From the IMG/VR virus record IMGVR_UViG_3300020186_000001, positions 44,330 to 108,329 of that record: a stretch of DNA of 64,000 bases, one strand, 5' to 3'. Made by a program: the position numbers and the translations under genes. The number at the start of each line of letters is the position of its first letter. The stretch's first letter is position 1. Source of the DNA: a virus. The notes beneath the pieces are model-generated. The model did not search any database and was not told where the DNA came from. It saw only the letters and a list, made by a program, of their open reading frames with translations. Of the stretch, positions 18,177 to 56,486 are shown in pieces.

Positions 18177-19163
18177 TCATTCATCACCTCTTTTAAAACG
18201 TGAGCTTTTAGTTTTAGCGGCTTTTAAATCCTCTTGAAGTTTGAGCGAGGTACAATCCTTGGCGTTCAAGTCATCACGAAGCCTATGGAATGTCGGGTGT
18301 CTCAGCCTTCCAACAGGATTGTCCTTAGAGCGTTTTGAGGCTTGTATCTCTTGAGTGAAGACATCGACGACCTTGCCCTTATAGGCATCGAAGTTTCGTC
18401 CCATATCAATTCGCAAGGTGTCGTCAAACCCAGATGCAAACCCAATCTCAATCAACTCTCCATTGTGATGCACTGAGAGAGCGAGCGATCCAATGCTATC
18501 TGCGTACTTGCCGTTGCCAGCTTTCCAACCTGAAATAATACAACTCACATCGTAGGACTTTTTCATTTTGCACCAGCCCATCCCGTAGCCTTGACGCAGG
18601 TCTTTCACGATAACGCCCTCGCCACCAGCGTTAACGATGCTTTGAAAATACTTGTGTATGTCGCCTGTGAATTGTTCGATTGGTTTTATATATTTGTTAT
18701 TCATTCTCTCAACAACAGCGACTAGGATTTTTCTACGCTTCTCAAGTGGAAGTCCTCGAAGATCCTTCCCGCGAAAGCGAACGATGTCGAAGACGTGATA
18801 GTTTAAAAATCCAAGCTCCTTTTGCTTTTGAACTGCAAGCATTGGCGAAGAATTCATGATTGAGTTTGTAGCGAGAAAATTCTCAGCCATGATCTCTCCG
18901 TCCAGTACCGTCCCTTGGAGATCTGCATACATCAGAGCGGTGATGTGAGGAACATTCGCAGTCCTATCAACGTGCTTAGTGTCAACAACTGAGACTCTTC
19001 TTGAGAGAAGAGCATTGTTCGCTTGCCTCTCATACGGATCACAGCCGATATAAAGAACGTAGCGAGAACCATCCATCTTAGGCTCTGCAACCAAATGAGG
19101 TTTTTCAAGGTCATTGGGCAAGATGCTAGTGCATCGTGATGGAATGATGAGTTCTACTTTCAT
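18177..19163 (-). CDS. lig: ATP-dependent DNA ligase
   Basis: EPKMDG, LDGEI, VFDI, EGVIVK, KMKK, RLRHP. Confidence 0.93.
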   Translation of the reverse strand: MKVELIIPSRCTSILPNDLEKPHLVAEPKMDGSRYVLYIGCDPYERQANNALLSRRVSVVDTKHVDRTANVPHITALMYADLQGTVLDGEIMAENFLATNSIMNSSPMLAVQKQKELGFLNYHVFDIVRFRGKDLRGLPLEKRRKILVAVVERMNNKYIKPIEQFTGDIHKYFQSIVNAGGEGVIVKDLRQGYGMGWCKMKKSYDVSCIISGWKAGNGKYADSIGSLALSVHHNGELIEIGFASGFDDTLRIDMGRNFDAYKGKVVDVFTQEIQASKRSKDNPVGRLRHPTFHRLRDDLNAKDCTSLKLQEDLKAAKTKSSRFKRGDE

Positions 19164-19486
19164 ATCTGCCTCAACTGTTGCATGAAGTTTAAAACTGGTT
19201 CGTCCTTCTTAATAGGGTCTTTCATAGGATCTTTCGGCCTCTGATACGGATGCTCTGAAGCAGAGCCTACCTTCACATAGCCTTTTGCAATCTTCTCGCG
19301 AATCTTTTTGTATACTGTGTCAGTACCCAAATACTCGGTCTCCTGCGGAGCAGCACCGATCCTTCCCCAAGAGGCGACATAGAGCGGCTGAGAGTGATCA
19401 ACCGCTCTTATCTCCCAATATTTATTAGAACGCTCATCGGTATATTCATACCTGCCCAGAAAATCTAATATCTCCCACTCATTCAT
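19160..19486 (-). CDS. WGR-domain protein (ends FMQQLRQI)
   Basis: SNKYWEI...SWGRIG...EKIAKGY. Confidence 0.88.
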   Translation of the reverse strand: MNEWEILDFLGRYEYTDERSNKYWEIRAVDHSQPLYVASWGRIGAAPQETEYLGTDTVYKKIREKIAKGYVKVGSASEHPYQRPKDPMKDPIKKDEPVLNFMQQLRQI

Positions 19487-19598
19487 CGCAATCCCCTTTG
19501 TAAAGTGATTGAGTCAAATCTGCATACCAGTGCTCGAAGGTGAGATTGCACTCACCTGAAGCGACAAGATCAATCCACAAATCGTGAATGGTTCCCAT

Positions 19599-20216
19599 TT
19601 AGTCCCCCAGGATATCTGCCAGATCGTCATCGGCTGACTTGGACTTAGATTTTGCCTTCTCAACTGCAAGTTTTGCGGCTGCAAGTTTTGACTTAGAATC
19701 AGTCTTCGGTTCGGCTTTTGGTTTAGGAGCAACCTTTGGAGCGGCAGGAGCGGAAGCCTCAGATGGATTGAATTGCTCTTCGACTTTAGTTTTAAATTCA
19801 GAACTTGCTCTCAATGTCAAATACTCAGTTGAAGTCTGGGATGCTAGACCTGAGAACTTTGATTCGCCGATGGCAGTCTTCAGCTTTTCAGCACTGAAGT
19901 TGCAAGCGTTAAGAATTGTTGCAAGAGTGACGTGGCCTGATTCTACTAACTCAAGAATTTTGTCGGTATCAAACTTCCAGTTCGCCCTCGAAGTATAGAT
20001 CACCGATCCTTGATCACACTTGAATCCTTTTCCCATGTCGATCTCAAAGCCATCATCGTTTTTTTCAAGGTAGGCAATGATCTCGCCCTTGTCAGCCTTG
20101 AAGAGGTCTTCATACTTTGAAGACAAGGCTTGATCGGTAAACGCTCGAATTAGAATCTCATCGAGTTTTTGAGGAACACTGTTTGAATCTTTTTTTCCGC
20201 CGCGATTGATAGTCAT
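19599..20216 (-). CDS. Hypothetical early protein with K/A/P-rich linker and acidic tip
   Basis: AAGGAG RBS upstream; below promoter copy 5. Confidence 0.7.
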   Translation of the reverse strand: MTINRGGKKDSNSVPQKLDEILIRAFTDQALSSKYEDLFKADKGEIIAYLEKNDDGFEIDMGKGFKCDQGSVIYTSRANWKFDTDKILELVESGHVTLATILNACNFSAEKLKTAIGESKFSGLASQTSTEYLTLRASSEFKTKVEEQFNPSEASAPAAPKVAPKPKAEPKTDSKSKLAAAKLAVEKAKSKSKSADDDLADILGD

Positions 20217-20246
20217 GATGATGAATCTCCTTGTTTGTTATTTAAT

Positions 20247-20274
20247 ACATCGTACTTTTTCGTATGAAACTTTA
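20247..20274 (-). promoter_or_regulatory. sigma28-like promoter, copy 5
   Basis: TAAAGTTT-CATACGAAAAAG-TACGATGT. Confidence 0.7.
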
Positions 20275-20298
20275 ATAAATCTTAATACCCCAATCAAA

Positions 20299-20556
20299 TC
20301 AGGTCACTTTGTTGTTCTTAATAATTTCAGTGAGGCGGTGTATCTCGATCTTAATAGCCGAGAAATATTCGTTTCTTGCTTCTTTGAGTGATCTGAAGCC
20401 GTAAAAGTCGAAATTGTCCTTGCGAACTCGATACAGGGTTTGACAGTCGCGTTCTAGCTTGGTGAAGGTGTCGCCAGTTTGAACCTTGTATTTTTCGATT
20501 TCACCGTCAGTTAGGCGATTTAGGTTATAACGATAAAGTGTTGTTGGGGATTTCAT
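20299..20556 (-). CDS. Hypothetical early protein
   Basis: TAAGGAGG RBS. Confidence 0.7.
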   Translation of the reverse strand: MKSPTTLYRYNLNRLTDGEIEKYKVQTGDTFTKLERDCQTLYRVRKDNFDFYGFRSLKEARNEYFSAIKIEIHRLTEIIKNNKVT

Positions 20557-20591
20557 GAGAACCTCCTTAGTTGTGTTGATAACCCCTATAT

Positions 20592-20771
20592 TCAGACCTT
20601 TTTAATTTCGGTAAGAAGGTGAAACAGCTTATTTTCTGCCTCCCTTAGCCTTATAGAGAATGTTCTAGCTCCCTTGCCGTTTTTAGCATTCTTGCAAAGG
20701 TCTATAGCACGCAGCAGTGCTTGAATCTGACCTTCAGTTAGGATGCTCGTTTTGACTTTTTCGTAACCCAT
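20592..20771 (-). CDS. 59-aa hypothetical protein (ends LLTEIKKV)
   Basis: GAGG RBS; first gene after promoter copy 6; not in ORF track. Confidence 0.6.
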   Translation of the reverse strand: MGYEKVKTSILTEGQIQALLRAIDLCKNAKNGKGARTFSIRLREAENKLFHLLTEIKKV

Positions 20772-20814
20772 TGTTTACCTCACTTTGTTGGTTTAACCCC
20801 ACCTTATAATGCAT

Positions 20815-20842: not shown

Positions 20843-20877
20843 GAGAATCTTAATACCCCAATAACACCAGGGCTTTA

Positions 20878-28147: not shown

Positions 28148-29470
28148 ACTGGGAACATTTGGATGCAGCTCCAATTGAAGTATTTCATGGTGAGGCAATG
28201 GAGCAATTTCATAAGCTGGCAAAAGAAAAAGGCATCACTGGTTCTACACCGGTTCTTGACGGCATTGATGTGAATAATATCCTTGCAAACTTTAAAGTAA
28301 AAATCATGAAGGCTTATGGGATAAGCAGTGATCCGGTATGATTTTTGTTTTTGTTTACTTCGCATTGGGCCTATTGGGCGTGTTCCTAGTTTTTAGTAGA
28401 AAAGACTTAGATAGCGTTCTCGAAATCCGCCCAAAGTTGCGCTGCTACGCGATTGTTGCGATTGTTGTTTTGTTAAGTCCTTTGTTTTTAGTCTATGCAG
28501 TGTTGAATGTTTTAGACGATAAATACCTATGACAGTGATCCGGTCAAACACGGGGGTTGAACAATGAGAGAGCTGGCGGCGATACATATTTTGTCTAGTC
28601 TCATCAGGACGGATATTGACAGGGCAGTCATGGTTGATGTTGCGGTAGCTGTTACCGACGAATTACTCGCACGTCTGGCGGAAACTACGCCAGTTTCTTC
28701 GTGTATGCATAAGTATAAGACCCACCGATATTTAGCCAAACCTCCAAGCGGCTATGAAACTTCTGTTAGCGTATGCACTCTGTGCGGGGTTGAACTATGA
28801 TCAGGCTACGTTGTGAGTCTTATCCAGATCCGCAGCAATATATCACTGCAAAAACAAATAGATACTGGATATACCTATAAAAAGTCTTGTGAGATCTGAA
28901 GATAACAGTTATACGCTCTCGTTCAATAACCCTTTTGAAAGGAACATAAATGATTAACAGCGTATTAGTGCCTCCAACCACAATCAGAGAACTCACCTTG
29001 GCGTATTTGACGTACATGCTTCGCAGGTATAGACAAAGGCATCCAGGAAAAATCTCAGTAATCTTAAGCGATGTCGCAGGCAGTAGCTGGGATGCACCAC
29101 TAATGCCCTTCTACAACCTCTACGGTGGACGCGGCAGAGTCGCAGGAGCAGAGATGGGCAAACTGTTCTCCAAGGCAGCCAAAGAGCTTGGAATGGATTC
29201 TCGCAAGGAAGACCGCTTTGGAAAGAAGGACGCAATCACCCGCTACTTCTTCGTTCCAGTGCAAGTATGAAAATAACAATTGAATTTGATGAAAAGTATG
29301 ATGCACTTCAAGCCTTACACGCACACGATATGCACTATGCAATGAGCGAAGCTCTGGGATTCATTCGCTCTAAAACTAAGTATGAAACTCCATCTGAAGA
29401 AACAATGGAGTGTCTGGATCGTATTAGAACTCTTTTGTTATCAGGGTTGGAGTGGGATGATAATCGTTGA
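28144..29470 (+). CDS. Run of small hypothetical genes (28144-28341, 28338-28532 membrane, 28564-28800, 28950-29270, 29267-29470)
   Basis: Mostly coupled ORFs with RBSs; grouped here. Confidence 0.55.
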
Positions 29471-29723
29471 AGGAGGACAAAGCAGGGACCGCTTCAGATA
29501 CGCCATTTACCGAGTCATACTCGCTCAGGCAGCACACTGGATTCAAGAGCCAGATTATTCAACGGCTCAAACCTATGAAAAAGAGTTGCTTGGATATCTG
29601 GATCAGCAAGAGATGGAGCGTTTCGGATCCGGTCAATTGGATGAAGACGCAGTTGTCTGCCACTTCAAATTCAAGAGGTCTGGAAAATCCTCAGAGTTTA
29701 TGTTTGATTTAAGCGAGATTTGA
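29457..29723 (+). CDS. Hypothetical protein (ends FMFDLSEI)
   Basis: GGAG RBS before ATG 29457. Confidence 0.6.
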   Translation: MIIVEGGQSRDRFRYAIYRVILAQAAHWIQEPDYSTAQTYEKELLGYLDQQEMERFGSGQLDEDAVVCHFKFKRSGKSSEFMFDLSEI

Positions 29724-29983: not shown

Positions 29984-30394
29984 GTGATACACTTCTCCCA
30001 TGACGCTATGACTGCGGTGATTGCAGGGAATATTCCTGAAAAGTTTGGTAGACCAGAACCTGGCACACCTCTTTGGTCGGTAATTGAATGTATCTCAAAA
30101 GAGGTGGTCAATATGCTTAACCAAGTTCAAACGAAACATGAACAAACTCTGCTGACAAAACATCCAGGTCTTATACCTGCACATCCCATATCAGTGGCGT
30201 GTCCCGATAGCCTTCAAGTCGCACTTTATATCGGAAGAGACAAGAATCTGTGGATGAAAGATGATCTAGGAAATCATAATCTGTTATCACACCGAAGCAC
30301 ACCTGGCGAAGTGGCAGATGAGCTTTTTAAAAAGATAGAGGCAAAGAGTTTCGTCGAACAGAGTTTATTTGTAGAGGAGCTTAGAAGGCTATGA
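29984..30394 (+). CDS. Hypothetical protein (ends FVEELRRL)
   Basis: ORF coupled to next gene. Confidence 0.6.
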   Translation: MIHFSHDAMTAVIAGNIPEKFGRPEPGTPLWSVIECISKEVVNMLNQVQTKHEQTLLTKHPGLIPAHPISVACPDSLQVALYIGRDKNLWMKDDLGNHNLLSHRSTPGEVADELFKKIEAKSFVEQSLFVEELRRL

Positions 30395-31399: not shown

Positions 31400-31437
31400 C
31401 TTTAAAAGACCGCAAAGACACATCTAACGGTAGGTGG

Positions 31438-32285
31438 GAGACGGTGAAATGAAAGATGGTAATAGCATTGTTTTTTACCTCGTGCGCAATCATTGGGGCT
31501 TGCTTTTACAAGTTGCGGACAAAGCAAAAATTGCGCTCGCCGTTTCGTCTACCTCAAATATGCTGGCAATTAAAGAAGCACTAGAGGAATTGGAGGCGGT
31601 GAAATGAATCGAGTGAGTGAAGAGCAATTAAACGAGTGGGAAAGAATGGCGGTGGATACGAGTCGTCCGATTCCAAAAATACTTGGGTCTCACTTGATAC
31701 CTGTTGAGCGTGGAGTTATCCCTGCACTCATAGCCGAGATTCGTGCTTCACGGAAAATAATAACACTCGTAGTTGACGTGGTTAGAGAAGCATACGAGCG
31801 TCATCCGAATGAAAAAAACCCGCTCGGTAACGCACTCAAGGACCTGTCCGAGGCGGTGAAATGACTACAATACAATTTGTTGACAAGGACTGTATTCTAC
31901 TGGGCGAAGTGCAATCATCGCCTCAAACAAATAAGGCGCTTATGGGAATCTTGGCGCACATGGTGCGAAATCTCGACGCGGCCACCGCGCTGGCGTATGC
32001 GCTTCGGTCTTGTGAGGGAATAGAAATTAGAACGGCACTAGATAAATACAATGAGGCAGTGAAATGACTAAAATAAGATTTATTAACAATAATCAGGCCC
32101 CACTTGGTGAAATACATGCCTCACAAAAAACCCATAAAGACCTTGTAGAAATATTGCAACACATGGTGCGAAAGCTGGACGCGTCCAAGGAGCTGGCACA
32201 CGCGGCTCGGTCGTGTGAAGATATAGAAGTTAAGGTTGCACTAGATAAATACAATGAGGCGGAATGTTATCTGACCGTGAAATGA
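31438..32285 (+). repeat. Tandem small-gene array with repeated junction GAG(G/A)C(G/A)GTGAAATGA (genes 31449-31607, 31604-31864, 31861-32067, 32064-32285)
   Basis: Junctions at 31438, 31593, 31850, 32053; last two genes are paralogs. Confidence 0.7.
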
Positions 32286-33771: not shown

Positions 33772-34022
33772 GCGAACTCGGATTTGATTGGAATACGAAA
33801 AAGATTAAGAGTGTAAAGCTTGTAAACGGTCAGCAGACTGTTGTTGAACTTAGTCCAAAAGAGATCATAAATGATCCAAATCGGCATCGCGTAGAGTCCA
33901 TTATTCACGCTCTTTGTATTTCCATAAATCAGTTGATCGAGGCTCAAGAACTTCAAGCTGCAAGAATCCAGTCAATGCTATCTCAAAGAGAGTCTCCAAA
34001 AGAGAGCCAAGTTGAGCAATGA
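33768..34022 (+). CDS. Hypothetical protein
   Basis: Coupled ORF. Confidence 0.55.
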   Translation: MSELGFDWNTKKIKSVKLVNGQQTVVELSPKEIINDPNRHRVESIIHALCISINQLIEAQELQAARIQSMLSQRESPKESQVEQ

Positions 34023-37000
34023 GTTTCGTAAATCTCCATGCACACTCCGAGGCTTCAATAGCTGATGGTTTATTCCATCCAAAGAAGTGGGTTGAGGCTT
34101 TAAAGCAACGTGGCTTTGTAGGTCATGCGATGACGGATCACGGGAGCATGGCATCTCTTCTTGCGTTTTACAAACTCATGAAGGCTGAGAAGATGATTCC
34201 GATCCTTGGGGTTGAGTTTTATTTTGTCCCAGATCCTTCAGAGAGAACTGCGGATAACCGCAAAAACTCTCACTTAATACTTCTTGCCAAGGACTACGAG
34301 GGATTCCGCAATCTTTGTCGGCTATCAAAGCTTAGTTACACTGAGGGCTACTACTACAAGCCAAGGATTGGCTACGAGTGGCTGGCCAAGTATAGCGAAG
34401 GGCTAATCTGTCTAACAGCGTGTCAGGGCGGGGTTCTCTCCAACGAGGTATGGTCTGAGCTAAAGGGCAGGAAGCACGATCTTGTCGGCACCTTCCATAA
34501 GCTCAAAGCAATCTTCAACGATGATCTCTACGTTGAATTCCAGGGACACAACACGATCTCCAAGAACGATGATGGGGAGCTTTTCAATTCGCAGGCACTT
34601 ATCAATCTTTCCTTTTACGAGACGCTTAGAAATGAGATTGGGTTTAAGCAGATTGTGACCAACGATTGTCACTACATTCTTCCAGAACACGCTCAGATCC
34701 AGCAGACTCTTAAGAACATTTCTTGGGGCAGTGCGGCTGGCGGAGCGAGTGATAGTGCGACTGTGACAAAAGATCACTTCACCGATTCGCTGTGGCTGAA
34801 GAGTGCGGTGCAGGTTTACTCTTCTTTTAGAGAGCATCATGAGTATCTTCCAAAACAGTTCGTGGCTGATGGAATGAGAAGAACGACTGAGGTTTTAGAG
34901 AAGTGTAAAGACTTTGAAATGCCAAAAGACAAGAGGTATCTTCCACAGTTTCGTTCTGTTGGTGGAGCTACTTCGAGCGAGTTGTTTAAGAGGATTTGTT
35001 TCAAAAAGCTTGATGATTTTCTTAAATCAGATCTTATGAGAACCGACAAAGAAACATACATTCAGCGATTCAAAAAAGAATACAAAGTAATCACCAAATA
35101 CCATCTTGAGGACTACTTTTTAATCGTTTGGGATGTCGTCAGGTTCGCCAAGAGAAGCGGCATCGTCACAGGGCTAGGTAGGGGGTGCCTTCATCCTGAC
35201 GTGAACGTCTTAACAGCCGATGGATTTAAGGCGATTTCGAAGATTGAAACCGATGATTTGGTTGTGAACAGAGGCGGTGAGTTTAAAAGAGTAGAGGCTG
35301 TTCACAAGTACAAACATAAGGGGAGGATGATACGCGTCAAAAGCAGATTCGGTCTTACATCCGGCAACGCTTTCACGCCTGATCATAAAATTCTGGCAAT
35401 TGAGACAAAAAAGAATAGCAACGACACTTATATAGATATTTCAGAACCAAAATGGATCAGGGCTGATGAGGTTAGGCGAGGGCATCGCGTCTTCACGCCA
35501 AACCTTGAGAGTCGAATGGACAACAAAGAGTTGTCAGACGACATTTTGTGGCTCCTTGGATATTGGGCGGGGGACGGCTGGCTTTGCGAGCATAAGAGAG
35601 TGGTACGCAGTAATGGATGGAGAAGTTCTACCGGATTCCGTCTTGGCTTTGCTTTTAATAATACTTCTAAGAAAGACTTCCTTGATAAGGCACGCGGCAT
35701 CCTTGAGTCTCTTGGTTTGAATCCGAGAGTTTGCAGATCGAAGAAGAAGAATTTGGTTCAAGTGAACGTGAATGACAAGACGTTTTACAATAGGATTTCT
35801 AGTTACTTTCCAGATTACGAGATTTCTAGTCAGACGAAAACTTTGCCGATATTTTTTAGAGAATTGAGCGAGAGACAGGCGAAAATACTTCTTTCCGGTT
35901 TAATAGATTCTGACGGGAGTGTTAGGGGTAAAACGACCATCTGCACAACCTCTCCTCGACTTGCTTATGAGACTAAAGAGCTATGTTTGATGTCTGGGAT
36001 TCTTTCTTCAATCCGCCATGAGAGCAAGAGAATTGATAAAAGGGGTTACAATCCGAGTGCCGCATATTATTTGATACTTGACAAGGCAGAGTCATCAACA
36101 GTCAAAAAAGACAAAAATGGTTCATGGTCTTTGGTCATTGACACAGAGACGGAAGACTATGAGGGGGATGTCTACGATCTATCCGTTTCTGGCAAAGAGC
36201 ATAATTTTTTAACTGACAGCTTCCTTGTTCACAATTCAGCAGCAGGGTGCTTCATAAGTTATTTGTTGGATATCGTAAAAATTGATCCACTTGAGCACAA
36301 GCTTATCTTTGAGCGGTTTCTCAATGAGAATCGCTGTGAGACTGGCGAGCTTCCTGATATCGATCTCGATTTCGAGTCAGATCGAAGAAGAGAGATCAAA
36401 GACTACATTTATAAAACGTATGGCCATGACCGTGTGTGCGAGATTGGAACGTATGGGCGAATGAAGCTCAAGACGGCTCTCATAGACTTTGCAAAGAGCA
36501 TGGGTGTTGCGACACAGCGAGAGATTCACGCTATCACAACCAATCTTGATCTTGACAAGGAGGACGTGGACGATCTCGTTGCGGCGTCTGAATCCGATCC
36601 GAGGCTCAAGATGCTTCTTGCTAATGAGAAGTTTGGGTTTGCGGTCAGTGAGATCATAGGCCAAGTCAAAAGCCAGGGAGTGCATCCGGCTGGTGTGATC
36701 ATATGTTCCGAACCAATCGCAGAGATTACTCCAATCAAGACTCAGAAGAAGAACTTTAAGCCAGGGGAAATACCAGAAGGTGTTAAGAAGAAGGATGCGG
36801 AGCAGCGTGTCATAACGACTCAATCAGAGGATAAATACATCATCGCCCAGGGCATGATGAAAGCTGACATTCTAGGGGTCAAAGAATACGATGTGATTCG
36901 ATATGTGATTGAGAACATTGATAGCGATCTCACCATTGATAATTACGTTCATGTGATTATGCAAAAAGAACGCGATAAGCCAAACAAGGTTGTTTGGAAG

Positions 37001-38296
37001 ATGTTTCAGGAGGGCAGGACGGAGGGTGTGTTTCAGTTTTCAAGTGACGGCATGAGGGCACTTCTAGTGATGATGCGTCCAACTCACATCGGAGATTTGA
37101 CGGCTGCGAATGCTCTTTACCGTCCAGGTTGTCTTGAAAACGGCTGGCACATTCAATACTGCAAAAGGAAACACGGAGAAGAGGAAGTCCTGTTTGTGCA
37201 TCCGAGTGTTGAAGAAGCATTGGGCGATACATTTGGCGTGATTGTTTTCCAGGAGCAGTTCATGGAGGTGATCCACAAGTTGGGAGATGTCTCTCTTGTG
37301 GATGCAGATACAATTCGTTCTGCTTTGGGAAAGAAAGACAAAGACAAGCTCAACAAGTTTAAAGAAGAGTTCGTGGTTGGTGCTTCAAAACGTATAGGGA
37401 AACTTGATGCGATAATGCTTTGGGATCAGATTGAGAAGGCTTCAGGCTATTCGTTTAATAGATCTCACAGTGCGGCATATGCTGTGCTCGCATATATCTC
37501 TCAGTATCTGAAAACCTATTATCCGGCTCATTTCTGGGCGGCAAGGCTGGACTGGGATGTAAGGAAGAACGATCTCGATGAGATGTTGGTTAATCGACGT
37601 GCGGCATCTGACATGGGCATTGAGTTCATTTTACCTCATGTGAATCGCTCCAGGGAGCGTTTCTATGTGGATGGATCAGAGGTTGTGTGGTCTTTCCTTA
37701 GCGTCAAGGGTGTTGGACCAAAGGCGGCTAAAGCCATTGTTGAGAGCCAACCGTATGCGAATTTCGATGACTTCTATGCGAGAGTAAATAAGAAGGCTGT
37801 TAAGAAGAACAATATTGAATTTCTCATATTTGGAGGAGCCTTTGATGAGTTTGGAGATAGAAGAGATCTCCTCCGGTGCCTTGAATCTAAGAAGAAAAGT
37901 AAGAAGGGATATGTTTCAAAGCCAGAAAAAGAATTGATGAGAGCCTTCTATGACTCCATGGGATTCTTTGAGCTTAAGATTAAAAAGGTAATGCCAGTTT
38001 TCTCTAAGTATTGCATCACGGAGAAAGAACTCCATGAATACACTGGCGGTGAATACGTTGTTGTAGGTGGAATGATCACAGCGGTCAGATCCATCAAGAC
38101 AAAGCGTGATGAGCATATGGGCTTTGTAACACTGATGGACTTGGATGAAATAATTGAAGTGACGATATTTCCGAAAGTGTGGGCAAAAGAACGAGAGATC
38201 CTTCGGATTGACAATATCGTTCAGATTTCTGGCAACAAGTCTACATACAATAATAAGAACAATCATATCGAAGCTCATAAAATAGAGTTGATGTAA
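34019..38296 (+). CDS. dnaE: DNA polymerase III alpha subunit, containing an intein
   Basis: PHP LHAHS/MTDHG; GRG|SAAG; PDIDLDF; YSFNRSHS; C-terminal OB fold. Confidence 0.96.
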   Translation: MSFVNLHAHSEASIADGLFHPKKWVEALKQRGFVGHAMTDHGSMASLLAFYKLMKAEKMIPILGVEFYFVPDPSERTADNRKNSHLILLAKDYEGFRNLCRLSKLSYTEGYYYKPRIGYEWLAKYSEGLICLTACQGGVLSNEVWSELKGRKHDLVGTFHKLKAIFNDDLYVEFQGHNTISKNDDGELFNSQALINLSFYETLRNEIGFKQIVTNDCHYILPEHAQIQQTLKNISWGSAAGGASDSATVTKDHFTDSLWLKSAVQVYSSFREHHEYLPKQFVADGMRRTTEVLEKCKDFEMPKDKRYLPQFRSVGGATSSELFKRICFKKLDDFLKSDLMRTDKETYIQRFKKEYKVITKYHLEDYFLIVWDVVRFAKRSGIVTGLGRGCLHPDVNVLTADGFKAISKIETDDLVVNRGGEFKRVEAVHKYKHKGRMIRVKSRFGLTSGNAFTPDHKILAIETKKNSNDTYIDISEPKWIRADEVRRGHRVFTPNLESRMDNKELSDDILWLLGYWAGDGWLCEHKRVVRSNGWRSSTGFRLGFAFNNTSKKDFLDKARGILESLGLNPRVCRSKKKNLVQVNVNDKTFYNRISSYFPDYEISSQTKTLPIFFRELSERQAKILLSGLIDSDGSVRGKTTICTTSPRLAYETKELCLMSGILSSIRHESKRIDKRGYNPSAAYYLILDKAESSTVKKDKNGSWSLVIDTETEDYEGDVYDLSVSGKEHNFLTDSFLVHNSAAGCFISYLLDIVKIDPLEHKLIFERFLNENRCETGELPDIDLDFESDRRREIKDYIYKTYGHDRVCEIGTYGRMKLKTALIDFAKSMGVATQREIHAITTNLDLDKEDVDDLVAASESDPRLKMLLANEKFGFAVSEIIGQVKSQGVHPAGVIICSEPIAEITPIKTQKKNFKPGEIPEGVKKKDAEQRVITTQSEDKYIIAQGMMKADILGVKEYDVIRYVIENIDSDLTIDNYVHVIMQKERDKPNKVVWKMFQEGRTEGVFQFSSDGMRALLVMMRPTHIGDLTAANALYRPGCLENGWHIQYCKRKHGEEEVLFVHPSVEEALGDTFGVIVFQEQFMEVIHKLGDVSLVDADTIRSALGKKDKDKLNKFKEEFVVGASKRIGKLDAIMLWDQIEKASGYSFNRSHSAAYAVLAYISQYLKTYYPAHFWAARLDWDVRKNDLDEMLVNRRAASDMGIEFILPHVNRSRERFYVDGSEVVWSFLSVKGVGPKAAKAIVESQPYANFDDFYARVNKKAVKKNNIEFLIFGGAFDEFGDRRDLLRCLESKKKSKKGYVSKPEKELMRAFYDSMGFFELKIKKVMPVFSKYCITEKELHEYTGGEYVVVGGMITAVRSIKTKRDEHMGFVTLMDLDEIIEVTIFPKVWAKEREILRIDNIVQISGNKSTYNNKNNHIEAHKIELM
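35186..36235 (+). mobile_element. 350-aa cis-intein with LAGLIDADG homing endonuclease
   Basis: CLHPD...FTPDH...LGYWAGDG...SGLIDSDG...FLVHN|S. Confidence 0.93.
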
Positions 38297-38351: not shown

Positions 38352-38792
38352 ATGCGTGATCTTGTTTACGAAATAGCTGGACTGCTGCCTAAAACAGTAA
38401 CTTTTGTCATAAGCAAAGCACTTAAGATCTCAGAGGACATGGACACAGAGGTCGATGAGGCCGCGTATTTGTTTGGCTTCTATGCTGTATTGGCTGAGAA
38501 GGCTGAGACTAAGCATCAAAAGTTGAAGTTTAATTTTGAGTCATGGCGAGCGAGGGCTGAGTCAAATGAGAATATTACTCGTTCGACTGAGGGTAAAAAA
38601 TCGCACACTGAGGCTCAAATGAAAGCTGTCATAATGTCTCAACCAAAGTTCCGTTTATACCAGAAAAAGTTAATTGAGGTGGATGAGCAGAGGCGTATTT
38701 TAAAAGTGATTTCCAAGGCTCTTGAGATGAAAAAGGATCTAGTTCAAACCAAGTCTTCAAACAGAAGAAACGAATTAAAGGGAGGGCGGTAA
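38352..38792 (+). CDS. UvsY-like recombination mediator
   Basis: Helical; TEAQMKA and ALEMKKDLVQ...R; next to SSB and RecA. Confidence 0.6.
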   Translation: MRDLVYEIAGLLPKTVTFVISKALKISEDMDTEVDEAAYLFGFYAVLAEKAETKHQKLKFNFESWRARAESNENITRSTEGKKSHTEAQMKAVIMSQPKFRLYQKKLIEVDEQRRILKVISKALEMKKDLVQTKSSNRRNELKGGR

Positions 38793-39646
38793 TGGCTAAG
38801 AAGTCTGGTGCGGCAATGGCTATTGTTGGCGGGGAGAAGGGTGTAACTGATGTTTTAAAAGAGGCACAAATCAACTTTGCATATATGCAGAGAAGTTGGT
38901 TTCTATTTGCAAAGTCCATTCATACGATCCATATGAGTAAGATCTATGAGAAGGCTGGTTTCACTTCTTTTAAAGAATATGTTGAAACGGATTTTCCAAC
39001 ACTGAGTTACTCGGTGATTGATAAGTTTGTTCATATTATAGAGAGCTGGGGTGAGGCTCTTGAGATGCGGATTAATCGTGATGAGGAGTACAAGATTCCG
39101 GCGTATGAGGCTTGTTATAGTTTAATTGCGGCGGAGAAGAAGGCTGAGATTCCAAAAGAAGAGCTTTCGCGTATCAAGAAGGCAGTTTTGGATAATACGA
39201 TTTCATATCATCGTCTCAGGGACTCTTTGCGTGAGCATATCGATTCAAAGAGGGCTTTAAGAAGCGATGCAAGCATTGATGTTGATGCGGTGGAAGAGGT
39301 TGAGAATCAATTGGCAGAAGAGCTTCGCAGCAGTGGCGAGCTTGATAGTTTTACCGATGGTTCTGAAGAGTTTGACTTGGACGATCCAGAGTCTCCTGAT
39401 GAGGATGAGGACTTCGACTTTGATGAGGCTGAGGAAGAGGTTGAAGTTGAGAAGGCGAACATGAAGAGCGATGTCAAGACTCTCGCGATGCACGTTGATT
39501 TTCTATTAGACAATTTGCCGTCTTATTGTGAGGCGGTAGGTGTGATTGATGAAGGGACAGTGGAATTGGCAGAGAAGTTGGAGAAGTTGATTGGTATTTT
39601 GGACAATTTTTTAGATCATCTTGATGAGATCGGGAAGGAAGACTAA
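38792..39646 (+). CDS. Hypothetical protein with acidic region
   Basis: GFTSFKEYV N-terminal helical motif. Confidence 0.7.
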   Translation: MAKKSGAAMAIVGGEKGVTDVLKEAQINFAYMQRSWFLFAKSIHTIHMSKIYEKAGFTSFKEYVETDFPTLSYSVIDKFVHIIESWGEALEMRINRDEEYKIPAYEACYSLIAAEKKAEIPKEELSRIKKAVLDNTISYHRLRDSLREHIDSKRALRSDASIDVDAVEEVENQLAEELRSSGELDSFTDGSEEFDLDDPESPDEDEDFDFDEAEEEVEVEKANMKSDVKTLAMHVDFLLDNLPSYCEAVGVIDEGTVELAEKLEKLIGILDNFLDHLDEIGKED

Positions 39647-46188: not shown

Positions 46189-46759
46189 CTTAGTTGGCAA
46201 GAATATTGTTGTTTACGATCTTGAGATCAAGGTGCCTATTGAGCAGTGTAAAAAGGGCTGGGCAGGATACGATGAGATGGGTATCAGTGTTGGATGTGCA
46301 TATGACTATCTTGAGGGAAGATACCGTGTGTTTCTTGATGACAATATGCAAGAGCTTGTGGATCGTCTGAATGAGCCTGAAACTCTAGTCGTTGCCTTCA
46401 ATCATATCGGCTTTGACAATAAGCTTTTACGTGGTGCGGGTTTCAATCTCAAGGTTGATGAGGAGCTTAGGAACTACGACATGATGGCGATCAGCAAGGC
46501 TGGTGCAGGATCAAAGGACAAGTTTCACAAGGGGTTTCGTCTTGATGATCATCTCGAATCATGCGAGCTTCCAAGGAAAACTGCGAACGGTGTGATGGCT
46601 CCAATTTGGTGGCAAGAGAAGAAGATAGGGACTGTTATAGATTATTGTATGAACGACGTTACACAAGAGCGTGGTCTATTTGAGTATATGTATGTGAATG
46701 GAAGAGCGGCGTGTGCGTGGCGTAAAGACTTTTACGAGATAGAGTTGCCAAGGCTATGA
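46172..46759 (+). CDS. DEDD/RNase H-like 3'-5' exonuclease
   Basis: YDLEI, FNHIGFD, YCMND. Confidence 0.8.
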   Translation: MRGLSDLVGKNIVVYDLEIKVPIEQCKKGWAGYDEMGISVGCAYDYLEGRYRVFLDDNMQELVDRLNEPETLVVAFNHIGFDNKLLRGAGFNLKVDEELRNYDMMAISKAGAGSKDKFHKGFRLDDHLESCELPRKTANGVMAPIWWQEKKIGTVIDYCMNDVTQERGLFEYMYVNGRAACAWRKDFYEIELPRL

Positions 46760-47220
46760 GAGAGTCCGTTTTTAACACAGAAATAGTGAATTCCCTGCGA
46801 GCCTGCGGTGCGTGGGCTTACAAGATATCAGACTCTCCGGCATCGTGGACAATGAAGCAGACGCGGTTTACTCCAGATAAGCCTTGCGACATTATCGGTT
46901 GCTATAACGGGAAGTTCTTTGCAATTGAGGGCAAGCAGATAAAGAAGGTGAAAGCATTCGGTCAAAGCACAATGAGGCTTTCACAGATTGAGAGTCTCAC
47001 AGAGATTTTAGATAAGGGTGGCAGGTCGTTTGTGTTCTTGAATGTGCGGATCAAGGGCGTCAAGGGTGAGGTCAAACAAGAGAATCGCTTGATTATATTT
47101 GATTGGAGTGTCCTTGGTGCGGCTGAGGGTTCAATCAAGAAGAAAGACATTGATGCGTTGCCATTTATTATTGGCAAAAGCAAACTGTTTGATTTGAGGG
47201 AGTTCTTGGATGAGCTTTGA
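46756..47220 (+). CDS. Holliday junction resolvase (RecU/Hjc-like)
   Basis: E...PCDII...FFAIEGK...SQIESL. Confidence 0.8.
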   Translation: MRESVFNTEIVNSLRACGAWAYKISDSPASWTMKQTRFTPDKPCDIIGCYNGKFFAIEGKQIKKVKAFGQSTMRLSQIESLTEILDKGGRSFVFLNVRIKGVKGEVKQENRLIIFDWSVLGAAEGSIKKKDIDALPFIIGKSKLFDLREFLDEL

Positions 47221-47890
47221 TCCAAATTTGCAAGATCAAATGAACAATATGGCTAACACTCTTTCTTCTTCAATGGATATGACAGAGATGGTTAGTTACA
47301 ACATATTTGGAGCGGCAATTACGACTACTAGGGCGTTTCAGAGTGTGGCTCTCAAGGTTGACTCCAATGCGAGTCGGGTATATGTCACATTGCGGCTGAG
47401 GTGGTGGGCAAGGTATAAACGGTTTGAGGCATTGCAAACAGCGTGGTTGATGCGAGCAGAGAAGAGGTGTGCGGAGCATGTTCCTCCTGGATGGTCGATG
47501 TTGGTTTACTATGACAGGTGATTGTGACTGTGTTTGAGATTCAAGAAAAGATTGCTGAGCTTAAGCAGACGAAGGCTAGTATGGGGTGTCAATCGGCTAT
47601 TGAGTCGATTGAGTATATTATAAAAGGCTACGAAAAACTTTTAGAGGGAGAAAACTCATAGAAGGAGTGAAAAAATGAATGAATTGATTGAGATGATTAC
47701 CTCGGTAAAGGACGGTACAACAAAGCTCACGCTTTCGATGATGCTTGACGTTGTTGTTGGGCTACAGGCAAGAGTGGGTGAGTTAGAGCGAGATCGCAGT
47801 AGGATTCAGGAAACTTTAAATGTCCTCGCAAGAGGGGGGAAGGCAGTCGATGGAAGCGGAAGGTCTGACAGCGGATTCTCAATCGGCTAA
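47210..47890 (+). CDS. Hypothetical genes 47210-47521 and 47675-47890
   Basis: ORFs with RBSs; grouped here. Confidence 0.55.
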
Positions 47891-48245
47891 GAATCTCATT
47901 CTTGGATGGATCAGAATGGTCAAGATGTTTGATACTAGTCTTCGGTACTACTTCCCGAAAGCAATAGACATCTTTCTCAAGCTTTCAATTCAGCACCAGT
48001 ATGGGCTTTTAAAGTTCTTTACTGAAGAGATCAAGAGTTCCAAGCTCACTAATAAAATACAAGATAATACGCAGTATGTGGATGTAATGCGTTCTATTTT
48101 ATTTTACTATACAGGTTCAAAGGATTTCGGTCAGCCTAACAGGGAGGAGTTTTGTTCTCTGCTTGGAAGGTATTGTCGATCTTCGATATTTAAGCAAATC
48201 AATGCGTGTGCAGAAGATTTTAAAAGTGAATTGGAGGCAATATGA
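47850..48245 (+). CDS. Hypothetical protein (ends FKSELEAI)
   Basis: GGAAGG RBS; coupled to next gene. Confidence 0.6.
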   Translation: MEAEGLTADSQSAKNLILGWIRMVKMFDTSLRYYFPKAIDIFLKLSIQHQYGLLKFFTEEIKSSKLTNKIQDNTQYVDVMRSILFYYTGSKDFGQPNREEFCSLLGRYCRSSIFKQINACAEDFKSELEAI

Positions 48246-51184: not shown

Positions 51185-51454
51185 ATGTCCAAGCTCAAAA
51201 AAAGATTAGACATAGAGATCAGCCGTCTTAAAAATAATCCTGAATCTCAATTCACGAGATCTAGGATGTTAGACGATATGGCTTTCAAGGTGTGTACGAT
51301 GTCTCGTGCGTATGGTGAGACTGACGAAGAGCTATTCGCTAGGTTGGCGGCACATCCTGATTTTGATAGATTTAAAGATGAGATATCGGCTGGGGTTCCA
51401 TTTCTAATAAACAAGCCTGAATCCTCGTTTATGGAGGATTTAAAAAAGATATGA
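51185..51454 (+). CDS. Hypothetical protein (ends FMEDLKKI)
   Basis: AAGG RBS. Confidence 0.65.
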   Translation: MSKLKKRLDIEISRLKNNPESQFTRSRMLDDMAFKVCTMSRAYGETDEELFARLAAHPDFDRFKDEISAGVPFLINKPESSFMEDLKKI

Positions 51455-51460
51455 GAGCTG

Positions 51461-51757
51461 ATGATTATGGCAAAGAAGCTAACCACTGTGAGGATGGGCA
51501 AAGAGGAAACTGGCTTTACTACAACAATGAGTCCAGATCGTCTCGGTGATCAGCTAATGAAAGCAATCACTAAGATTTTGGGTGAGGAATACACAAAGCA
51601 CACTATAACAATGAGCTTTGAGGGCAAGAGGGACGGCGGCGAGGGTTGTATCAGGAATTTGGTGTTGAATATTGTTGACACGAAGAAGATTAACAAGATC
51701 ATAACTCAGGTTAAAGTCGATCCAGAGGCGTTCATGAGTGAGTTGAAAAAGATATGA
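51461..51757 (+). CDS. Hypothetical protein (ends FMSELKKI)
   Basis: Coupled to next gene. Confidence 0.65.
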   Translation: MIMAKKLTTVRMGKEETGFTTTMSPDRLGDQLMKAITKILGEEYTKHTITMSFEGKRDGGEGCIRNLVLNIVDTKKINKIITQVKVDPEAFMSELKKI

Positions 51758-52680: not shown

Positions 52681-53325
52681 ATGGAATTAATTAAGATTGG
52701 CGATGACAGGACGGTATGTGCAAAAGAGCTTCACAGGTTTTTACGTGTGAGTACGCGTTGGGACATATGGGTTCAAAGAAGAATCAAAGAATACGAATTC
52801 TCTCAAGGTACTGATTTCATTGAGATCAAAAATGATCACAATGAATACGGAGAGTTAAGATTAAGTCTTGATACTGCAAAAGAGCTTTGCATGGTTGAAC
52901 GAAACGACCAGGGCAGACAGGCCCGTAAGTATTTCATTGAGATTGAGAAGAGGTGGCAAGCACAAAGAGATGCAATGACACCGGCTGAGAGACTTTTAGA
53001 GCAAGCGAAATGGGCGGTAGAGCAGGAGAGAAAGCTTGCGGCATTAGATCAAAGACAAGACAAGATGGAATCAAAACAAGACAAGACGGAAGCAAAGCTG
53101 ATGCTACTCGGATCAGATTCAAACTACCGAACGGTCAGAGGCATGTGCAAAGAACTCGGACAAAGCATTCCAAGGGACATCGCAAATAGTATCGGACGCA
53201 AAGCAGCAGGCATTTGCAGACAGAACGGTCTTACAATCGGCAAAGTCCCAGATGAGAGGGATGGAGAAGTAAACTCATATCCTATTCATATCCTAAAGCC
53301 GGTGATAGAGGGCTGGCAGGCGTGA
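52681..53325 (+). CDS. AntA/AntB-type antirepressor
   Basis: AKELHRFL...W...RIKEY...AKELCMVERN..GRQARKYFIEIE. Confidence 0.85.
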   Translation: MELIKIGDDRTVCAKELHRFLRVSTRWDIWVQRRIKEYEFSQGTDFIEIKNDHNEYGELRLSLDTAKELCMVERNDQGRQARKYFIEIEKRWQAQRDAMTPAERLLEQAKWAVEQERKLAALDQRQDKMESKQDKTEAKLMLLGSDSNYRTVRGMCKELGQSIPRDIANSIGRKAAGICRQNGLTIGKVPDERDGEVNSYPIHILKPVIEGWQA

Positions 53326-53552
53326 AGGATTATTATGATTATGATTGGCTTTCAGGTGTTCACGTTGAGGTGGAAAAATCAGGCGTTGCTATTGAGGTGG
53401 AGCGTCAAAAGGCATTGGAAGACGCAGAGCGAATGAAGATATTGAGCGGGTTCGAAGATGAGATTGATGACACAGATCGAATGAAATATAAAATGTCACT
53501 TGATGACTTATCAGATCCTCCGACATTCATGGAAGAACTGCAAAACATATGA
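53322..53552 (+). CDS. Acidic hypothetical protein (ends FMEELQNI)
   Basis: GTGA overlap. Confidence 0.6.
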   Translation: MKDYYDYDWLSGVHVEVEKSGVAIEVERQKALEDAERMKILSGFEDEIDDTDRMKYKMSLDDLSDPPTFMEELQNI

Positions 53553-53890
53553 ATCCAATATTGAATTTAGCAGACAAGTGACTCGGCTCGAATCAGAACC
53601 GATCCAAACTTTTAATGTCAAGACATAATCATGCTATGATGAGATCACAACCCATAACACACGGGGAGGTGTCTCTATGTTCACAATCGAAATTGAAGTC
53701 GAACCAAAAAACGATGAAGGTTTTATTAAAGCAACAGTTAGGGAATCAAATCACCAAGAGTTGATAGGCTACAGCAGCTTTGCAAAATCAGAGAAGAAAG
53801 CGGTTGCATTCTTATTGGATCAGATTGCACAATACCTTAAGAAATAAGGTTAAATTTCTATTAGAATACGTCAAAGTACTAGGTAATACA

Positions 53891-54847
53891 ATGTCCAAAA
53901 CTCCAGTTTTCAAGAGAAAAGCCCTTTCAAAACGGGGGGTTAAGCGTATAGACAGAGCGGCACTGCTCAGCCCACCTGATAATATTGATATGTCAATGTT
54001 CGTAAAGAAAGAGACATTAGATCCTCCAGAAGCCATACCGCTCAAGGAATTGCACAAGACCATTGATGTATTGCCTCCTGAGTCACCGCTCAAGACTATT
54101 GATATCGGCGATATGTTTGATCCGTATACTGCCAAGAAGATTTCAGAGGTTGGTGCTCGTGGAATGTACGAGGCCGATGTGGACTTGCTCAAGATTGAGT
54201 GGGTTATTAAATATCCTACATTGAAGGTCAAAGATTGGTTGCTGCACAAGAAAGGGTACAGCTACACGCAGGCTGCGAAACTATACGAGATTGGCGGCAA
54301 AGAGGACGGTTGGAACGAGGCCAAGAATCATGTTCTTGACAAGATGACCAGTAGCATTGTGAAGCGTCACATTGATCAGATGGCAGATGTTCAAGAGCAG
54401 CATATCAAGGCATCCAAGATTGGGCTGGCAAAAGCGGTTGAGATGCTCTCCAAGCTCTCCATTGAGCCTGTGAAGGGCAAAGACGGCAAGTTGCTTAAGG
54501 ACGCAACAGGGAAGCCTGTATGGCGAGGGTTCAGGTCTATTGATTTATTAAACTGTTTGGGTGCGGTTGAGAAGGCACAGCAGATATACCGAAGGGCGAT
54601 GGGATTACCGAATGAGGAGGCGGGGCTTGCACAGATACTTGACAAGGTGAATGTTCACTTCAATCAGGTTAATATTCAGAACAACGAGGTTGCGGCTCCG
54701 GTGGTTGATCCAGTCAAAGACAAGATGCGTAAAATAGCTGAAGAGTTGACTCATGATCAGATTCTTGAGTTTGTGGAATTCAGAAGAGAGCAGAGGGCGA
54801 TATTAAAGCTTCAGGCGGCAGAGGAGGCATCACATGGGGCCGGATAA
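53891..54847 (+). CDS. Possible terminase small subunit
   Basis: Helical; GWNEAK and RRAMGL segments; upstream of TerL region. Confidence 0.45.
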   Translation: MSKTPVFKRKALSKRGVKRIDRAALLSPPDNIDMSMFVKKETLDPPEAIPLKELHKTIDVLPPESPLKTIDIGDMFDPYTAKKISEVGARGMYEADVDLLKIEWVIKYPTLKVKDWLLHKKGYSYTQAAKLYEIGGKEDGWNEAKNHVLDKMTSSIVKRHIDQMADVQEQHIKASKIGLAKAVEMLSKLSIEPVKGKDGKLLKDATGKPVWRGFRSIDLLNCLGAVEKAQQIYRRAMGLPNEEAGLAQILDKVNVHFNQVNIQNNEVAAPVVDPVKDKMRKIAEELTHDQILEFVEFRREQRAILKLQAAEEASHGAG

Positions 54848-55036
54848 AGAGTTGCAGACGATCTTCTCGGTCAAGATCAGTCGATCACAATCCAAGATGT
54901 ATCGAGACATCCTTCACTTGAGTTACATCTTGGGTGCGATGGTTTTATTCTTTGGAGGCGTGATTTTGATTCAATATTTGACTTGCAAGAGTGGGTTGAC
55001 TTTCATGGAGTGCATGGCGTATCGAGGTTGAAACAG

Positions 55037-55054
55037 AGTTTCTACGTAGAAATT
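55037..55054. promoter_or_regulatory. Dispersed palindrome, copy 4
   Basis: AGTTTCTACGTAGAAATT, intergenic. Confidence 0.65.
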
Positions 55055-55096
55055 ATGAGCGAATACGAGAGTAAAATTGAATAGTTAGGAGTGTGT

Positions 55097-55264
55097 ATGA
55101 AAAAGCTTAAGGCATATCGGGCCGACGATTGGTTCTTAGATTGTCCAGAATGCGGCGAAATCATCACACTCGGATCGAGAGAAGAGGCAGAGGAGGCGGC
55201 TGCAAGTCCGAGTGAGTGCGAGTGCGGCCATATATATAACTTTGAATTAGATGAGGCAGGCTGA
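55097..55264 (+). CDS. 55-aa Zn-finger protein
   Basis: AGGAG RBS; CPEC...CECGH; not in ORF track. Confidence 0.55.
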   Translation: MKKLKAYRADDWFLDCPECGEIITLGSREEAEEAAASPSECECGHIYNFELDEAG

Positions 55265-55477
55265 GATGAATCCACAGGTTGAACGAGTGAACAAGATAAA
55301 GGCGAGATTAGGATCAGTATCACAGGTCGTCAAAGAAAGGCTCCCAGGCAGCGTGAGAGAGCTTCTAAACGATGTGCGGTATCTGATTGATGAGTACGAG
55401 GGCGTCATGGATGCTCTCGAAGAGGAGCGTGCTCAGGCAGCAATACAAAGAACATTTCAAAATCAATAGGGGAAGCA

Positions 55478-55711
55478 ATGAGTAGATTTAATTATGTGGA
55501 GTTTGATGAGTATGCACAGGCTGAACAAAATTCAGCTAAAAAGATCGCTTTAAACTTAGAATTTCTAATCGAGTCATTGGGCAAGGGCAGATCGCAGCAT
55601 CTCGCGTTGACTAATCTCGAAGAGTGCTACATGTGGATCGGTAAAGCGATCAGAGATAAGCAGATCGAGCGGAACTCCATAGGCGACGAACTCGAAAGGG
55701 CTAATCCATGA
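55478..55711 (+). CDS. Acb2/Tad1-hairpin-family anti-defence nucleotide sponge
   Basis: GRSQHLALTNLEECYMWIGKAI matches the R...ALTxLEExxMW family motif. Confidence 0.65.
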   Translation: MSRFNYVEFDEYAQAEQNSAKKIALNLEFLIESLGKGRSQHLALTNLEECYMWIGKAIRDKQIERNSIGDELERANP

Positions 55712-56271
55712 AGCCATTCCAGTATCGCAGTTCCACTATTCTCACGGTGGAGCAGAAGAAAGAAAAGAAAGCTAAGAAGCTAATGACTAGGGCGAAGGTG
55801 ATTGACATTCAAGCATTCGCAGAACGTCAGCGTATCGAGAAGAGAGAAGAGTCACGCAAGCTGAGAGCAACAGGGCGTCAACAGCGAGTGGTAGAGGTAA
55901 AGCTACTAATAGCCGACAAGAAGGCCAAAGAAGAAGCAGAAGAGCGTGCTTTTGAGCATGAGACCGAACTGATGGCTGTGAGGGCATCGGCTGGTGAAAG
56001 TCTCAGGTAAACACCATTCACAAAAAGAGGTCATATGAAGATTGTAGTTCTCATGGGTGTGTTGTTAGCGGCTCCGGCTTTTGCTGGTGTGGAATGTGTA
56101 AATAATAAGCAATCACGATTAGTCGAGATACAAGATGTTGATGCAGGTTGTGTGGTGAAGGCTAATTCCAAAATCATATACAAGGCCAAGAGGGACAAAG
56201 ACTATTGCAAGAAGAAGGCAGCTATTCACACGGACAAGCTAATCAAGCTTGGTTGGAAGTGCGTGGGATAA
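55708..56271 (+). CDS. Hypothetical genes 55708-56010 (charged coil) and 56035-56271 (secreted, Cys-containing)
   Basis: Signal peptide ending AFA in the second; grouped here. Confidence 0.55.
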
Positions 56272-56486
56272 TGCTAAGCGATGATCGGCTAATGGGTATT
56301 GCCAAGAAGTTTAATGTCAACGCGGATCAGCCTCGCAAGGCGATTGTAAAAGAGATTTTAAGAATGATTGATATGCTTGAAGTGCCTGGCAAATCATTGA
56401 ACGGCATGGGTGTGATGCTCAAGATGATGCTTGAATCTGAGCCTGAATTGAAATCAGATTTTATGCGAGAGTTGGGGGAAATATGA
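56271..56486 (+). CDS. Hypothetical protein (ends FMRELGEI)
   Basis: TAATG overlap. Confidence 0.6.
   Translation: MLSDDRLMGIAKKFNVNADQPRKAIVKEILRMIDMLEVPGKSLNGMGVMLKMMLESEPELKSDFMRELGEI

Follow-up and report, generated by a model that had tools for sequence, protein, structure and literature searches.

The window analysed here is the whole stretch of 64,000 nucleotides (nt) shown above (positions 44,330 to 108,329 of IMG/VR record IMGVR_UViG_3300020186_000001), which forms the right-hand 64 kilobases (kb) of the complete, 108,329-base pair (bp) genome of an uncultured phage with terminal repeats. It encodes dissimilar proteins that end in one and the same short peptide, directly before the stop codon; we refer to this peptide as the tag and to the genome as G000. 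The tag is best read as a short linear docking motif, [D/E/N/S]-F-M-x-[E/D]-L-x-x-I-COOH, in which hydrophobic residues at positions −8, −4 and −1 would be the anchors of an amphipathic helix at the C terminus. The phage encodes a DnaE-type polymerase, a gp32-like single-stranded DNA-binding protein (SSB), UvsX, SbcCD and a RecU-like resolvase, as well as a primase, a DnaB-like helicase, an ATP-dependent ligase, a sigma factor, an HDAC-like enzyme and a MoxR/VWA pair, and its terminase gene lies at the right end of the genome. The following genes of the window carry the tag.

19160..19486, minus strand: WGR-domain protein, 108 residues (Pfam WGR, E 3.7e-7); Pro-rich linker and canonical tag in the last 8 codons (19163-19186)
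29382..29723, plus strand: orphan, up to 113 residues; canonical tag; not ATGA-coupled; no Pfam or PHROG family
29984..30394, plus strand: orphan, up to 136 residues; tag variant with V at −7 and L at −1; ATGA-coupled
47820..48245, plus strand: member of a 141-residue helical family; canonical tag; gene after the RecU-like gene
51185..51454, plus strand: orphan, 89 residues; canonical tag; no coupling to the downstream gene
51461..51757, plus strand: orphan, 98 residues; canonical tag; ATGA-coupled
53322..53552, plus strand: orphan, 76 residues; canonical tag; uncoupled
56205..56486, plus strand: orphan, 93 residues; canonical tag; ATGA-coupled

The WGR gene is ATGA-coupled to the DNA ligase gene (18177-19163), and the protein at 29382..29723 has no homolog in the four relatives described below. 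Pfam and PHROG scans of the tag carriers from four genomes returned almost no families.

Enrichment of the tag at C termini

An initial annotation had listed these eight C termini, and we found all of them, each with TGA directly after the tag. The pattern that it proposed, F-x-x-[EDQ]-L-x-x-[IL]-stop, occurs at the C termini of 8 of about 150 open reading frames (ORFs), compared with 0.009 expected from its internal frequency (2 of 32,533 positions), which corresponds to a Poisson P of ~1e-21. The same pattern ends 1 of 566 non-chosen ORFs in other frames, and residue shuffles gave a mean of 0.015. A six-frame scan with a tighter pattern revealed a ninth G000 tag outside the window. The carriers, which span 59 to 412 residues, were described as unrelated, and their bodies indeed have no kinship detectable by blastp or hhalign: an all-against-all blastp comparison of the carrier proteins gave nothing below E = 0.008 except the tails, and hhalign with tag-trimmed bodies matched only two expected cross-genome ortholog pairs, alongside one weak body similarity (probability 23%).

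At the nucleotide level, the codons for the conserved F, E and L residues vary as they do in the rest of the genome (TTT or TTC for F; TTA, TTG, CTG or CTT for L), and this synonymous variation bears out the proposal that selection acts on the protein. The terminal Ile codon is ATA in 6 of 7 tags, compared with 18% genome-wide, and in the relative G001 the terminal Leu codon is TTA or CTA in 10 of 13 cases; an NTA last codon before TGA, which creates the ATG of the next gene, is used far above expectation. The caveat that ATGA coupling might shape the tag is thus right for the choice of the last codon, but it does not extend to the rest of the tag, because 17 of the 23 ATGA-coupled genes are untagged, ending mostly in K, and many tags are uncoupled (3 of 8 in the window, and most of those in the relatives G002 and G004). 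Taken together, the codon variation, the untagged coupled genes and the uncoupled tags show that the tag is a feature of the proteins. The enrichment therefore stands far above chance with this coupling-matched control included, coupling is not its cause, and the shared C-terminal tag is confirmed as real.

The tag in related phages

Searches with megablast and tblastn found no close relative among deposited phages, and IMG/VR scans with single proteins returned no relatives, whereas an SbcC alignment scan did yield them. SbcC homologs with 40 to 55% identity are frequent in metagenomes, many of them on ~100-kb contigs. A 4.5-kb microbial-mat metagenome contig (L166) is 100% identical over SbcC, and a microbial mat is therefore the likely habitat of the phage. 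For comparison we used the whole records G001, G002 and G003 (complete) and G004 (55% complete), together with further loci drawn from IMG/VR and metagenomes by the alignment-based scan. When IMG/VR was scanned with a DNA pattern for the tag, each contig yielded just single matches, at chance level.

Counts across genomes were made with a loose pattern at the exact C terminus and are given as observed over expected matches. These were 11/1.4 in G000, 13/1.55 in G001, 8/1.5 in G002 and 11/0.7 in G004, with 4 against 1.06 expected in G003. There was no excess in the controls, namely 16 distant phage loci (5/4.9) and T4 (4/2.7). In the six-frame scan with the tighter pattern, G001 has at least 14 tags and G002 has 8, and none was found in G003. 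The tag thus runs through a clade and is absent from one relative (G003), from T4 and from the 16 distant loci.

About 1 protein in 10 to 15 is tagged (6 to 10% of proteins), and the tagged proteins are mostly small, mutually unrelated orphans. Nearly all carriers are specific to their genome, with no homologs or paralogs, and their genes are grouped in a variable island that follows the recombination module on its downstream side. Each genome has its own flavour of the tag: [DENS]-F-M-x-[ED]-L-x-x-I in G000, [ED]-F-x-x-A-L-[EK]-[NK]-L in G001, D-[FIM]-[LIM]-x-E-L-x-x-L in G002 and F-x-[DE]-x-[LI]-K-D-L in G004. In a leave-one-out test, 26 of 36 orphan tags were assigned to their own genome, and a matrix built from the tags of other genomes retrieves the C-terminal tags of a left-out genome as its top matches.

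An ending of the tag's 8-residue type also occurs in IMG/VR phages unrelated to G000, in which a 508-residue DnaB-like replicative helicase (L050:10892-12415) ends in G-F-M-E-E-L-P-N-I-stop; the same ORF is present in L114, L105, L094, L029 and L024.

A tag-like tip on the gp32-like SSB

Two adjacent conserved genes of the window encode proteins with a related C-terminal motif.

38792..39646, plus strand: conserved 284-residue protein; N-terminal domain, acidic linker and C-terminal helix with the tag motif plus 4 residues
39646..40680, plus strand: gp32-like SSB; Zn-finger core, ~105-residue disordered acidic/basic linker and conserved helical tip of the tag class, followed by G-V

Profile comparison identifies the SSB as a homolog of gp32, with alignment A5 matching RB69 and T4 gp32 in the PDB (E 4.5e-8 to 9e-7). 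The protein also matches PHROG SSB families, and the His/Cys ligands of its Zn-finger oligonucleotide/oligosaccharide-binding core are invariant in that alignment. The tip, [DE]-L-[ED]-x-E-L-[RK]-x-L-G-[VIL], is nearly invariant and as conserved as the zinc ligands, while the linker before it is hypervariable and 20 to 150 residues long. In the AlphaFold2 model, the linker has a predicted local distance difference test (pLDDT) score of 31-45, consistent with ~105 disordered residues, and the tip forms a helix (residues 332-341) with pLDDT 72-74. Among the 54 closest cluster representatives from a search of 1.8 billion proteins, ~45 retain the tip, and gp32-like SSBs farther away often end in a related L-E-x-E-M-R-x-A-L helix.

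To compare the SSB tip with the orphan tags, we scored all 9-mers of each genome with a matrix trained solely on the orphan tags of the other genomes. The SSB tip ranks 1st of 18,146 in G004, 16th of 34,427 in G002, 48th of 33,874 in G001 and 67th of 32,533 in G000, that is, within the top 0.006 to 0.2% of all 9-mers in the four genomes. Judged by this ranking, the orphan tags and the SSB tip form one motif class. The initial annotation had treated the SSB ending as a mere degenerate copy of the tag, whereas the evidence makes it central. In G003, the sole relative without orphan tags, the SSB (L125:5914-6816) also has a truncated tip, cut to an acidic run that ends in L-D-F and resembles bacterial SSB tips.

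The same anchor pattern recurs at the end of T4 gp32, which terminates in D-L-D-D-L-L-N-D-L-stop as read from the T4 genome. T4 gp32 contacts other replication proteins with its acidic C-terminal domain (PMC3012046, PMC12424635), and one helix of this domain binds the Dda helicase by hydrophobic contacts (PMC11551737). In the literature on this domain we found no definition of the roles of the last residues. In T4 UvsX, the segment L-E-T-D-L-E-Q-L is found 8 residues before the end, and the C terminus of T4 gp41 is an amphipathic helix (L203-L211); tips of this general type may therefore be present on several of the T4 proteins for replication and recombination.

Conserved carriers of the motif

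Although most carriers are orphans, a few belong to conserved families, and these are DNA-transaction proteins (the WGR protein, the 141-residue family and the 284-residue acidic protein, with the SSB tip in the same class). The WGR orthologs in G001 and G002 retain the tag, which follows a Pro-rich linker of variable length; the linkers differ, and only the WGR domain aligns. The 141-residue family, detected in all five genomes with a hidden Markov model, likewise preserves the motif, which stands behind a linker of variable sequence in the 19 members aligned (alignments A2 and A3). The motif is exactly terminal in the tag-rich sub-clade and is followed by 1 to 13 further residues elsewhere, G003 being the case in which it is buried under a 13-residue extension. 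In both families, orthologs therefore keep the tag while the linkers change. In the 284-residue protein, the motif is kept in 11 of 11 orthologs, 0 to 23 residues from the end (alignment A6), and ranks 14th of 32,533 9-mers under the leave-genome-out matrix.

The AlphaFold2 model of the 141-residue protein is all-helical (pLDDT 83) and has no fold match in the PDB. The family lies in the recombination module and has a Y-Y-S-G-R-type motif, as in the most conserved segment of T4 UvsY; we do not claim that it is UvsY, since the likeness is limited to this motif, the hhalign probability is 11% and there is no Pfam match. For the 284-residue protein, the ESM Atlas yields a weak DUF3102 lead. A conserved 146-residue helical protein encoded after the polymerase (38352-38792) was also considered as UvsY and rejected; it shows just an invariant C-terminal V-Q-T-K-x-S-N-R-R-x-E segment, weakly like a homeodomain recognition helix (E 0.12).

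Other features of the window

Further genes that bear on the tag, as doubtful carriers or as candidate partners, are as follows.

13195..16147, minus strand: MoxR-type AAA+ ATPase (15020-16147) and CobT-like VWA protein (13195-15042); Pfam AAA_5, CbbQ_C, CobT_C and VWA
20592..20771, minus strand: orphan, 59 residues; degenerate tag with L at −8, I at −4 and V at −1; no family
46756..47220, plus strand: RecU-like Holliday-junction resolvase; Pfam RecU, phrog_843

The resolvase has a conserved C-terminal F/Y-D-L-x-x-F/W-L segment with a tag-like arrangement at its end in G000, and is doubtful as a tag carrier. Among the degenerate versions that had been proposed, the SSB tip belongs to the motif class and the 59-residue orphan is plausible, but the SbcD ending is not counted, being part of a conserved SbcD C-terminal segment at a variable distance from the end. 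The statement that no structural gene carries the tag holds for recognisable structural genes and needs one qualification, namely a conserved gene of 80-92 residues next to the packaging genes (1201-1440 of the G000 genome, outside the window, where it encodes 80 residues; 66251-66526 of G001), which overlaps the 3′ end of the preceding 388-residue gene by ~110 nt and has the local tag at its end in both genomes.

The DnaE-type polymerase (34019-38296) has 1425 residues, compared with 1049-1090 in the relatives. The ~350 additional residues lie around residues 390-740 and may be an intein, given other inteins noted in the genome. At 31434-32285, four tandem ATGA-coupled small ORFs (57, 86, 68 and 73 residues) have a different ending in common, A-L-...-E-A-V-K, and probably form a small paralog family.

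A possible docking helix for one partner

Our favoured explanation, to which we assign a probability of about 0.5, is that the tag is an SSB-tip-like docking helix gripped by a single partner that probably belongs to the replication or recombination machinery. One partner protein would hold the tag helix in a hydrophobic groove, and its ancestral clients would have been DNA-transaction proteins, namely the SSB, the 284-residue acidic protein, the 141-residue family and the WGR protein, which is nick-sensor-like. In one sub-clade, many fast-evolving accessory orphan proteins would then have acquired the same helix, and would therefore be recruited to the partner or compete for it. The likeliest partner would be one of the core proteins with which the phage carries out replication or recombination. 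The earlier proposal of an address tag that docks proteins onto a common hub agrees with this explanation as regards selection on the protein, the unrelated bodies and the retention in orthologs, but its chosen analogy, the T4 clamp peptide, does not hold.

A bolder version, which we offer tentatively, is a clade-wide address system: the SSB tail tip would be a portable plug, acquired repeatedly by orphans and delivering them to one replisome or recombination hub, with the groove drifting along with the tags. The orphan genes that bear the plug possibly encode host-takeover or anti-defence proteins.

We looked for the reader of the tag in several ways. No gene is common to the tag-rich genomes and missing from G003 in a phyletic search; the SSB, UvsX, WGR, MoxR and 141-residue-family genes are all present in G002. 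The DNA ligase, encoded beside the WGR gene, was excluded as the partner of the WGR tag, since G002 has a tagged WGR protein and no ligase. A sliding clamp was not found in the complete genome at E up to 10 (PF00712, PF02916) or in the Pfam and PHROG scans, and an FKBP gene, suggested earlier as a hub, was not found among the proteins scanned. Because the clamp, phyletic and ligase searches gave no candidate, the reader would be a core phage protein or a host protein.

Several observations weigh against the docking explanation. These searches identified no binding partner, and the orphan carriers have no assigned function. The link between a changed SSB tip and the loss of tags comes from one genome, G003, and orphan tags are few or absent in the available pieces of the lineages L119 and L180-L184, in which the SSB tip is of the standard form. 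Conserved-family tags are best fitted by the orphan matrix of their own genome in 5 of 9 cases, a marginal result (p ~0.05). Furthermore, the SSB tip is constant across genomes, whereas the orphan tags vary at non-anchor positions, and it has two or three extra residues beyond the motif; the tag and the SSB tip could therefore have different readers.

Alternative explanations

Among the alternatives, the least unlikely is that the reader is a host protein, such as a replication or repair hub, hijacked by the phage proteins including the SSB, so that the flavours reflect different hosts. With its DnaE-type polymerase and without a detectable clamp, the phage has to rely on the host for parts of the replication machinery, the phyletic search left no phage gene as a candidate, and the flavours differ among genomes of different G+C content. 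However, the motif is unlike the bacterial beta-clamp motif (Q-L-[SD]-L-F) and the bacterial SSB tip (D-D-D-I-P-F), and the SSB tip does not vary among genomes whose hosts would, on this view, differ. We consider it slightly less likely still that the tag marks clients of the phage MoxR-type AAA+/VWA chaperone pair, with the metal site of the VWA domain capturing the acidic tail or the free carboxylate and the ATPase remodelling or assembling the client. The pair is encoded in the window, it is only a few kb away from some of the tagged genes in G000, G001 and G002, the tag is exactly C-terminal and has an acid at −5 or −9, and peptide capture by the VWA domains of such pairs has been proposed (PMC7159879). 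Against this, the MoxR gene occurs in all four complete genomes (G000-G003) and forms an intact ORF in the tag-less G003, the apparent stop codons of the match lying outside this ORF; the VWA partner is matched in G003 too, as in G001. Moreover, G001 has Ala and no acid at −5, conserved carriers tolerate 1 to 23 residues after the motif, the spacing is helical whereas VWA ligands are usually extended peptides, and most tagged genes adjoin the recombination module.

The remaining explanations fit the carriers less well. A degron that gives early proteins a short, protease-controlled lifetime would account for the exactly C-terminal position, the hydrophobic last residue and the predominance of small accessory proteins in non-structural regions. 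ClpX C-terminal degrons have nonpolar last three residues (L-A-A type) or a basic tail (MuA type), whereas positions −3 and −2 of the tag are variable and mostly charged or polar, so that it does not belong to the ssrA type; the anchors at −8 and −4 indicate a helix and not an extended tail, residues after the motif are tolerated, and the same motif class is carried by the abundant, essential SSB and other core proteins, which together make a degron improbable. We give even less credence to a cargo-loading peptide that takes its carriers into the capsid for delivery with the DNA, like the T4 capsid-targeting sequence or encapsulin loading peptides: one terminal peptide is indeed common to unrelated small proteins, one tagged gene adjoins the packaging genes and the tag-rich island is directly upstream of the late region, but the conserved carriers, among them the SSB and the WGR protein, belong to DNA metabolism, none of the recognisable structural proteins is tagged and there is no protease site before or after the tag. 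Equally remote, and largely refuted, is the view that the tag only reflects a nucleic-acid signal (ribosome-binding site, ATGA coupling or recombination linker) or an old tandem duplication with diverged bodies. The strong NTA bias of the last codon, the arrangement of tagged genes in islands and the single weak body similarity would fit such an origin; the codon usage at conserved residues, the many untagged coupled genes and uncoupled tags, the range of carrier lengths without paralogy by blastp or hhalign, and the presence of the motif class on SSB and WGR proteins of clearly different folds speak against it.

Implications and comparison with known systems

If one reader exists, dozens of proteins with no assigned function would fall into one functional set, the tag would become a handle for fishing out the reader, and new phage genes could gain function quickly through a ready-made plug. 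The tie to the SSB tip and to DNA-transaction proteins narrows where to look for that reader, and it draws attention to the last residues of T4 gp32, which follow the same pattern. In the literature we found no description of a phage in which 6 to 10% of proteins, mostly orphans, share one docking tail.

The MoxR-VWA systems resemble this phage in that it also encodes the pair and capture of terminal or acidic peptides by the VWA protein has been proposed (PMC7159879), but here neither gene neighbourhood nor phyletic distribution links the pair to the tags. The peptide of T4 gp43, gp33 and gp55 is a hydrophobic-acidic C terminus by which different proteins dock on one hub, the sliding clamp. 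Its motif, [ST]-L-D-F-L-[FLY] in the endings read from the T4 genome, has other spacing and residues than the tag, and it has three or four carriers with known roles, compared with a tenth of the proteome here; with no clamp gene detectable in the phage and a different motif, the clamp-binding analogy drawn earlier fails. Nor do the tags belong to the bacterial beta-clamp-binding motif, Q-L-[SD]-L-F or Q-L-x-L-x-L, which is bound as an extended peptide, as they are without the conserved Q and have helically spaced anchors (i, i+4, i+7).

Docking tails are known for few replisome proteins, such as SSB tails and clamp-binding peptides, and in T7 two different replisome proteins have one tail type in common. 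The tails of gp32, Escherichia coli SSB and T7 gp2.5 and gp4 come closest to the arrangement described here, since in each of them a disordered linker bears a short acidic-plus-hydrophobic tip for the binding of partner proteins. The orphan tags differ in detail from the SSB tip of this phage, as the last hydrophobic residue of a tag is also the end of the protein, whereas in the tip it is followed by G-V. Above all, in the known SSB systems one tail serves many partners, whereas here many unrelated, mostly orphan proteins carry the tip.

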